The position numbers and the translations under genes were made by a program. From Escherichia coli (GTDB taxonomy: Bacteria > Pseudomonadota > Gammaproteobacteria > Enterobacterales > Enterobacteriaceae): a stretch of DNA of 64,000 bases. Below are positions 13,182 through 13,513 of the stretch, in pieces (within the stretch, counting starts at the first letter, position 1; every line of letters begins with the position of its first letter). Location of the stretch: NCBI RefSeq assembly GCF_003334355.1, contig NZ_QOWP01000002.1; one strand, written 5' to 3'. The notes beneath the pieces are model-generated. The model worked only from the letters and a program-made list of their open reading frames with translations. It made no database searches and was not told the DNA's origin.

Positions 13182-13513
13182 TTATTTTCCCCGGAAGCAC
13201 ATTCACTTCACAATTTGTTTACATCAATTTTAACACATCATCAACAATCCGTCTTTATACAGATCGTAAAGATTGATGCCTCGCCTGCGTGGCCTCTATG
13301 GCTCTGATTTAAGTAATATCTGCGGGCGTGGTCACGTTTGCGGGGCTATATGTACCCGTTTCTGCGATCTAACTCAACCTTTTTAACTACAATGATGTGA
13401 CTTTTTACATAAATTGATTTTACATAAAATAAACATATATCGGGGGAATGATAGATTTGTGGTTGACATGCATCAACAAAGGAAGCCTTTTAGCTTCCTC
13501 GTTGTGCAATAGA

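Follow-up and report, generated by a model that had tools for sequence, protein, structure and literature searches.

The systems closest to the region analyzed here are published entries for the same gene, yejG of Escherichia coli. In the ArcA study of Park et al. (2013; PMC3798270, Tables S5 and S6), yejG is directly repressed, one of 85 directly regulated operons, with an 11.9-fold change in the arcA mutant relative to the wild type, and two ArcA sites, yejG1 and yejG2, are assigned to it. Chung et al. (2013; PMC3798280, Table 1 and Fig. 4D) described tandem sigma-70 promoters, of which yejG is a validated example with starts 120 bp apart. Myers et al. (2013; PMC3688515) reported that the sigma-70 ChIP peak falls from 1461 in air to 56 without oxygen, and that the expression of yejG is 4.0-fold higher in air.

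We analyzed a 64-kb stretch of E. coli DNA (hereafter the window), whose bcr-yejG region is identical to that of K-12 MG1655. Window coordinates are obtained by subtracting 2,265,056 from those of NC_000913.3. Positions in older papers, given on U00096.2, were converted to version 3 with an offset of +1978 at this locus, which was verified in three ways: with the yejG coding sequence (PMC3415461), with the printed sequences of the ArcA sites (PMC3798270), and with the sequence of an FNR site (PMC3688515).

The gene under the control of the spacer, yejG, is encoded on the minus strand at 12837-13181 (GTG start, 114 aa), and bcr lies at 13514-14704 on the same strand. An earlier note on this DNA had described the 332 bp between these co-directional genes as AT-rich, free of ORFs, and likely to be the promoter and regulatory region of yejG. 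This description holds. The spacer spans 13182-13513, has a GC content of 0.39, and contains only mechanical ORFs of 30-52 aa, none of which is conserved. Published start sites (PMC3798280, PMC3415461) and an ArcA ChIP-seq site (PMC3798270) identify it as the mapped two-promoter, ArcA-regulated control region of yejG. This is already in the literature: the promoters, the ArcA sites, and a predicted FNR site are all found in published tables. Hence, in its main lines the locus is an ordinary bacterial control region.

Promoters and ArcA sites of the spacer

Primer extension and sigma-70 ChIP-seq put two yejG starts inside the spacer (PMC3798280). In aerobic cells, primer extension locates them at 2,276,299 (P1, window 13221) and 2,276,419 (P2, window 13341). 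The dPeak analysis of the same study resolved two sigma-70 binding events, both aerobic, with the one for P2 at 2,276,432. In the TSS-seq data of Kim et al. (2012; PMC3415461) the starts are at 2,276,298 and 2,276,287 (window 13220 and 13209), and the P2 start is absent from this genome-wide table. P1 has an extended -10 element, TGTTAAAAT, at 13235-13227 on the minus strand, followed by the starts at 13220/13221 and 13209.

P2 covers 13341-13389 on the minus strand, with a -35 element TTGAGT (13377-13372), a -10 element TACATA (13354-13349), and a start at about 13341. The hexamers match the consensus at four of six (-35) and three of six (-10) positions, and our consensus scan did not call this promoter; its identity across genera is 0.90. 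It includes an A-tract with an ArcA-like unit, TAGTTAAAAA, at 13389-13380 (-48 to -39). The 17 bp between the hexamers contain a conserved GATC at 13366-13369. This Dam methylation site is invariant in almost all genera, and the base that follows it is G, A, or T. Weak sigma-32 signals have been reported in the area of the -35 element (around 13374-13388), at 2,276,452 by genomic SELEX and at 2,276,466 by ChIP-chip. We rejected a sigma-32 promoter at P2: the fit to the consensus is poor and the spacing to a CCCCATNT-like -10 element is around 3-4 bp too long. The consensus scan predicted a sigma-70 promoter, TTGATG-17-TATCAT, at 13448-13476 on the minus strand. RpoD genomic SELEX gives the same TTGATG/TATCAT hexamers for the yejG-bcr spacer (PMC3946193), and the TATCAT element is conserved only in Escherichia, Citrobacter, and Salmonella.

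The ArcA site yejG1 (13204-13247, minus strand; 2,276,282-2,276,325) consists of four direct-repeat units overlapping P1 (PMC3798270, Tables S4 and S6). It extends from -26 to +18 of P1, its units score 8.6, 9.7, 9.8, and 5.3 bits, and its ChIP-seq peak has a height of 8.3. The second site, yejG2 (Tables S1, S2, and S4 of the same study), has a peak of height 1.9 at 2,276,488 (window 13410) and a predicted site, ATGTTTATTTTATGTAAAATCAATTTATGTA, at 2,276,484-2,276,514 (window 13406-13436). Its box occupies 13416-13436 on the minus strand, with DR1 (ATGTTTATTT, 13436-13427; 8.0 bits) and DR2 (ATGTAAAATC, 13425-13416; 8.5 bits) placed 11 bp apart from centre to centre. The box, ATGTTTATTTT-ATGTAAAATC, is located at -95 to -75 of P2.

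To score these sites independently of the table, we rebuilt an 18-bp ArcA matrix from 114 boxes of Table S3 of PMC3798270, leaving out the yejG1 box. The comparison of the repeats with known regulator sites, suggested in the earlier note as a check, ends in an ArcA box at 13436-13419, with 17.6 bits in the published table and 17.5 bits with our matrix, for an average of roughly 15 bits in known boxes. The yejG1 site gives two matches, of 18.8 and 18.7 bits. On both strands of the window we found seven matches of at least 12 bits, three of which are in the spacer; the yejG2 box ranks sixth among the seven. With a scan for 7-nt units, nine ArcA-like units scoring 7 bits or more were identified in the spacer, all of them on the gene strand; the opposite strand had none, and the background is 0.0014 per position. 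Other strong boxes in the window are at 1156-1173 (19.2 bits), 40158-40175 (20.7 bits), and 46614-46631 (21.1 bits). The last two are the published mqo and rcsD ArcA sites, and the first agrees with the published yeiQ site save for a small difference from the printed sequence.

The direct repeats and the conserved block

The two 11-bp direct repeats pointed out in the earlier note are exact copies of TTTTACATAAA, at 13403-13413 and 13418-13428, which are 15 bp apart from start to start and are the only exact copies in the window. When the spacer was shuffled 2000 times with its dinucleotides preserved, exact direct repeats of 11 bp or longer arose anywhere in 34 of the shuffles, and within 30 bp in four. 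Hence, the repeat exceeds what is expected by chance. Read along the gene strand, the 11-mer is TTTATGTAAAA; it includes ATGTAAA, an ArcA half-site core and a variant often found in ArcA units. The distal copy, at 13418-13428, is the DR2 of the published yejG2 box, and the published predicted site includes this copy together with a part of the proximal one.

The proximal copy, at 13413-13403 on the minus strand (in the segment 13401-13413), holds an ArcA-like unit, ATGTAAAAAG, at 13410-13401. The 7-nt core of this unit scores 8.6 bits, equal to the score of DR2. The unit lies 21 bp from the TAGTTAAAAA unit and 15 bp from DR2, outside the usual phasing of 11 or 22 bp, so that the proximal copy does not sit at the distance from the box (around 11 or 22 bp) where added ArcA units are expected. 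At putP, one extra bp between DR2 and DR3, i.e., a spacing of 12 bp, abolished the protection of DR3 (PMC3798270). Given the 15-bp spacing and the putP result, the binding of ArcA at the proximal copy is doubtful. Its membership among ArcA units is therefore uncertain.

To assess the conservation of the region, we compared 80 yejG loci from other enterobacterial species. This analysis revealed a conserved non-coding block of 94 bp, at 13343-13436, extending from DR1 of the ArcA box to the -10 element of P2. Averaged over 30 enterobacterial species, its identity to the E. coli sequence is 0.90, and it reaches 0.99-1.00 in Salmonella and Citrobacter. For comparison, the identity in the 30 species is 0.78 for the yejG coding sequence, 0.56 for third codon positions, and 0.43 and 0.50 for the flanking segments of the spacer. 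The ArcA box is found 81-82 bp from the -10 element of P2, TACATATA, in nearly all 80 species, with scores of 10-18 bits. The proximal repeat copy has a mean identity of 0.89 across genera. The repeats themselves are old: Escherichia, Salmonella, Citrobacter, Enterobacter, and Kluyvera all have the two copies at a spacing of 15 bp, and in some genera there is drift in the second copy. Within E. coli, 5423 of the 5426 complete genomes carry the two-copy form, and no clear case of a three-copy allele was found among the 5426. One of these genomes, that of the bovine strain EC24.26 (NZ_CM186189.1), has an exact 15-bp deletion, at the equivalent of window 13414-13428, that removes one repeat unit. 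It leaves the DR1-DR2 box intact and brings it 15 bp nearer to P2.

The proximal copy also overlaps a CRP-like site, TGTGACTTTTTACATA, at 13396-13411. This site matches TGTGA-N6-TCACA at eight of ten positions, with one perfect half-site, and its centre at 13403.5 corresponds to -62.5 relative to the start of P2. The right half of the site falls inside the proximal copy (unit at -69 to -60), and its TCAC core is conserved across genera. Such a match is commonplace, since the window contains 194 CRP-like sites with at most three mismatches. Genomic SELEX lists yejG as a predicted target of CRP (PMC3105977).

Further upstream, at 13463-13476, an FNR-type palindrome, TTGACATGCATCAA, matches TTGAT-N4-ATCAA at nine of ten positions, which places it among the six sites of the window with at most one mismatch. 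In many other genera the palindrome is perfect, and about 70 of 81 species keep it with no more than two mismatches. The distance from its centre to the T of DR1, which lies downstream, is constant at 34-35 bp, while the intervening 27-28 bp vary freely. The palindrome is listed as a predicted FNR site at 2,276,541 in Table S6 of PMC3688515, where it has no FNR ChIP peak and overlaps a Fis ChIP-seq signal.

Other regulators were compared with the repeats by consensus sequence, and were rejected. The first half of a PhoP box (TGTTTA-N5-TGTTTA) is perfect and the second is invariably TGTAAA. For CpxR (GTAAA-N5-GTAAA) the spacings are 11 and 15 bp, not 10, and OmpR, TyrR, IHF, and Fis fit poorly. 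Two published sites fall within the yejG coding sequence: a GalR-operator-like sequence, GCGGAATCGGTTCAAC, at 13088-13103 (2,278,144-2,278,159; PMC5110547), and a Cra ChIP-exo site, which is outside the spacer (PMC5888115).

The hairpin after bcr

The hairpin noticed just after the bcr stop is real, with a correction to its end: the string quoted for it spans 13481-13498, so the end at 13500 given in the earlier note is two bases too far. It is the core of an intrinsic terminator of bcr, whose extended helix spans about 13474-13504 on the minus strand, with a core stem AGGAAGC/GCTTCCT pairing 13480-13486 with 13493-13499. On the minus strand the stem is followed by TTTGTTGAT, and the tail is UUUGUUGAU. 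A 66-nt stretch with the hairpin folds at -25.2 kcal/mol (z = -5.6 relative to shuffles). A simple terminator scan overlooked it, since there are fewer than five T in eight positions of the tail. Of 69 distinct orthologous sequences, 65 have a GC-rich hairpin (-7.9 kcal/mol or better) with a T-run after the bcr stop, and the sequence of the stem differs by lineage (GGAAGC, GGGAGC, GGGGC, GGCCC, GAGCG). The hairpin is a bcr terminator that is conserved in structure.

It is probably a two-way terminator; the layout of this type, with an A-run on the 5' side of the hairpin, is found in many genera. In two of the three Term-seq conditions a plus-strand 3' end was mapped at 2,278,567 (window 13511), and a minus-strand 3' end of bcr is absent among the Term-seq entries listed (PMC7815308). 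Since a plus-strand 3' end is located at 13511, some plus-strand RNA crosses the yejG promoters in antisense. This RNA may be read-through from yejABEF or an antisense transcript from a candidate promoter. Read-through is conceivable because the end of yejF and the yejG stop are only 3 bp apart, with no terminator-like site detected between them on the plus strand. At the other end of the gene, Term-seq shows an abundant minus-strand 3' end at 12629 (around 213,000 reads), inside the convergent yejF and 208 nt past the yejG stop. Hence, the transcription units of yejG and yejF overlap tail to tail.

Regulatory model, alternatives, and comparison with known systems

We are confident that yejG is controlled from this spacer, through two sigma-70 promoters that are used aerobically and repressed by ArcA-P, and that the hairpin is the terminator of bcr. 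The published measurements demonstrate both starts, the occupancy by ArcA in both places, the 11.9-fold dependence on ArcA, and the aerobic-only occupancy by sigma-70. From these and from the layout of the sites we infer a role of ArcA at the proximal copy, an action of CRP at -62.5, and a silencing of P2 by the upstream ArcA site. In air, sigma-70 RNA polymerase uses P1 and P2, the latter with its upstream A-tract and perhaps with CRP at -62.5. At low oxygen, ArcA-P occupies the four-unit site at P1 as well as the DR1-DR2 box, which lies upstream of P2. From this box it might spread over the proximal unit (-69 to -60) and the TAGTTAAAAA unit (-48 to -39), where it would make the activator site, the A-tract, and the -35 region of P2 inaccessible, or displace the activator, or both. 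Some observations do not fit this model easily. The upstream ArcA peak is weak (1.9) relative to the one at P1 (8.3), and the box is upstream of the core of P2, which is unusual for simple occlusion. The proximal copy is out of phase with DR2, and the start of P2 is missing from the TSS table of PMC3415461. Moreover, the near-total invariance of the 94-bp block exceeds the usual needs of an ArcA box and a promoter.

The part of this model that concerns the proximal copy has a possible alternative, which we regard with some reserve: the proximal copy, and perhaps the whole repeat, may be the site of an activator, with CRP bound to TGTGACTTTTTACATA and activating P2 as a class I promoter. The resemblance of the proximal copy to an ArcA unit would then be incidental, or would allow ArcA to compete with CRP, and ArcA units do overlap CRP sites at other promoters (PMC3798270). 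The position of the site relative to P2, its perfect half-site, its conserved TCAC core, and the presence of yejG in the SELEX list all speak for this reading. Yet the resolution of SELEX cannot tell TGTGACTTTTTACATA from the FNR-type palindrome or from a TGTGA half-site near P1, sites of this quality abound in the window, and the distal copy is left unexplained. The conservation of the palindrome suggests another arrangement, in which a third promoter starting from about 13428 would depend on a regulator of the FNR/CRP family bound at -41.5, and the ArcA box would be an operator over its start instead of acting on P2. In a class II FNR promoter, the fixed distance between palindrome and box, kept in about 70 of 81 species across variable DNA, would give the T of DR1 the position -7 or -6. 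The commonest arrangement of ArcA is a box over the start site. A promoter is also predicted here from RpoD SELEX (PMC3946193). Against this, the predicted FNR site has no FNR ChIP peak and the sigma-70 occupancy is almost nil without oxygen (PMC3688515), no start near 13428-13441 is found in PMC3798280 or PMC3415461, and the would-be -10 element is poor and not conserved. We consider such a third promoter improbable. Also unlikely is a broader arrangement, in which the 94-bp block and the palindrome form a multi-protein switch (ArcA, a member of the CRP/FNR family, and possibly Dam) that gates P2 and a third promoter at about 13428, or in which the block is the target of a plus-strand antisense RNA ending at the shared hairpin. 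If this were true, yejG would be among the most tightly oxygen- and carbon-gated genes of enterobacteria.

Two further readings concern a small transcript and a neutral origin of the repeat. The earlier note had left room for a small transcript, and the spacer could encode a small RNA, a plus-strand antisense RNA ending at the hairpin, or a leader peptide. In favour of this suggestion is the plus-strand 3' end at 13511 in two of three Term-seq conditions (PMC7815308), together with the very strong conservation of the 94-bp block. A search at a permissive threshold found no Rfam family, with two sub-threshold chance matches, the best of which (E-value of 0.086) is to an unrelated family. The block folds about as well as shuffled sequences on both strands (z = +0.39 and -0.24), and no excess structure was found in the 5' UTR of P2. 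No plus-strand start is listed within the spacer in the TSS table (PMC3415461), and read-through from yejABEF into a two-way terminator can account for the plus-strand 3' end. A leader peptide is suggested by a 17-aa ORF, MFILCKINLCKKSHHCS, starting from 13436 on the minus strand, with the ATG contained in DR1; within it the 15-bp repeat keeps the frame and amounts to five codons, and the rare one-copy allele preserves the frame. Nevertheless, this ORF lacks a Shine-Dalgarno sequence, a stop codon interrupts it in Kluyvera, it is longer in Klebsiella, and the variation of the region shows no codon periodicity. With neither start, stop, nor length kept in relatives, we rejected the small-ORF reading, and a small transcript of any of these kinds seems very improbable. 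The repeat could also be a neutral tandem duplication of 15 bp that has no function and arose when replication slipped in AT-rich DNA. The genome of EC24.26, which lost exactly one 15-bp unit as predicted by recombination between the copies, is in line with this idea. The maintenance of both copies and of their spacing in Escherichia and four other genera, the identity of the region across genera (0.89-0.90, versus 0.43-0.50 in the flanks), and the presence of two copies in almost all E. coli genomes, with no clear three-copy allele, refute it, and we give neutral duplication next to no weight.

Returning to the ArcA-repressed two-promoter model, some small points are left over once the published data are accounted for. 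Among these are the second exact copy of the repeat, whose 15-bp spacing is outside the published model of the ArcA site, and the surrounding 94 bp, which are more conserved than yejG itself, a gene of unknown function. The uncounted second copy, the conservation of the block, and the lack of a known function for yejG suggest together a strong selection on tight, aerobic-only expression of the gene. Such selection could guide work on the role of YejG.

The comparison with known systems shows likenesses and differences. With class I CRP promoters of the lac type (-61.5), P2 shares a TGTGA-N6-ACATA site at around -62.5 upstream of weak core hexamers. It differs from them in that the site is a predicted one, has only eight of ten matches, and is 1 bp off the canonical position. 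The terminator of bcr shares with two-way intrinsic terminators the GC-rich hairpin after the stop codon, the T-run on the minus strand, and an adjoining 3' end on the plus strand; unlike in these terminators, the plus-strand tail in E. coli, CGUUGUGCAAUA, is U-poor. The tandem sigma-70 promoters are those of Chung et al. (PMC3798280), where the repeats and their regulators are undiscussed. The table of Park et al. (PMC3798270) is silent on the deep conservation of the surrounding 94 bp, and counts a third unit, DR3, of 1.4 bits at a 10-bp spacing, leaving the exact second copy at 15 bp uncounted. Our locus is that of their yejG1 and yejG2 entries, with an identical sequence: a pair of TGTTA-type units spaced by 11 bp, further units close by, a peak in ChIP-seq, and the anaerobic repression of an aerobically expressed gene.
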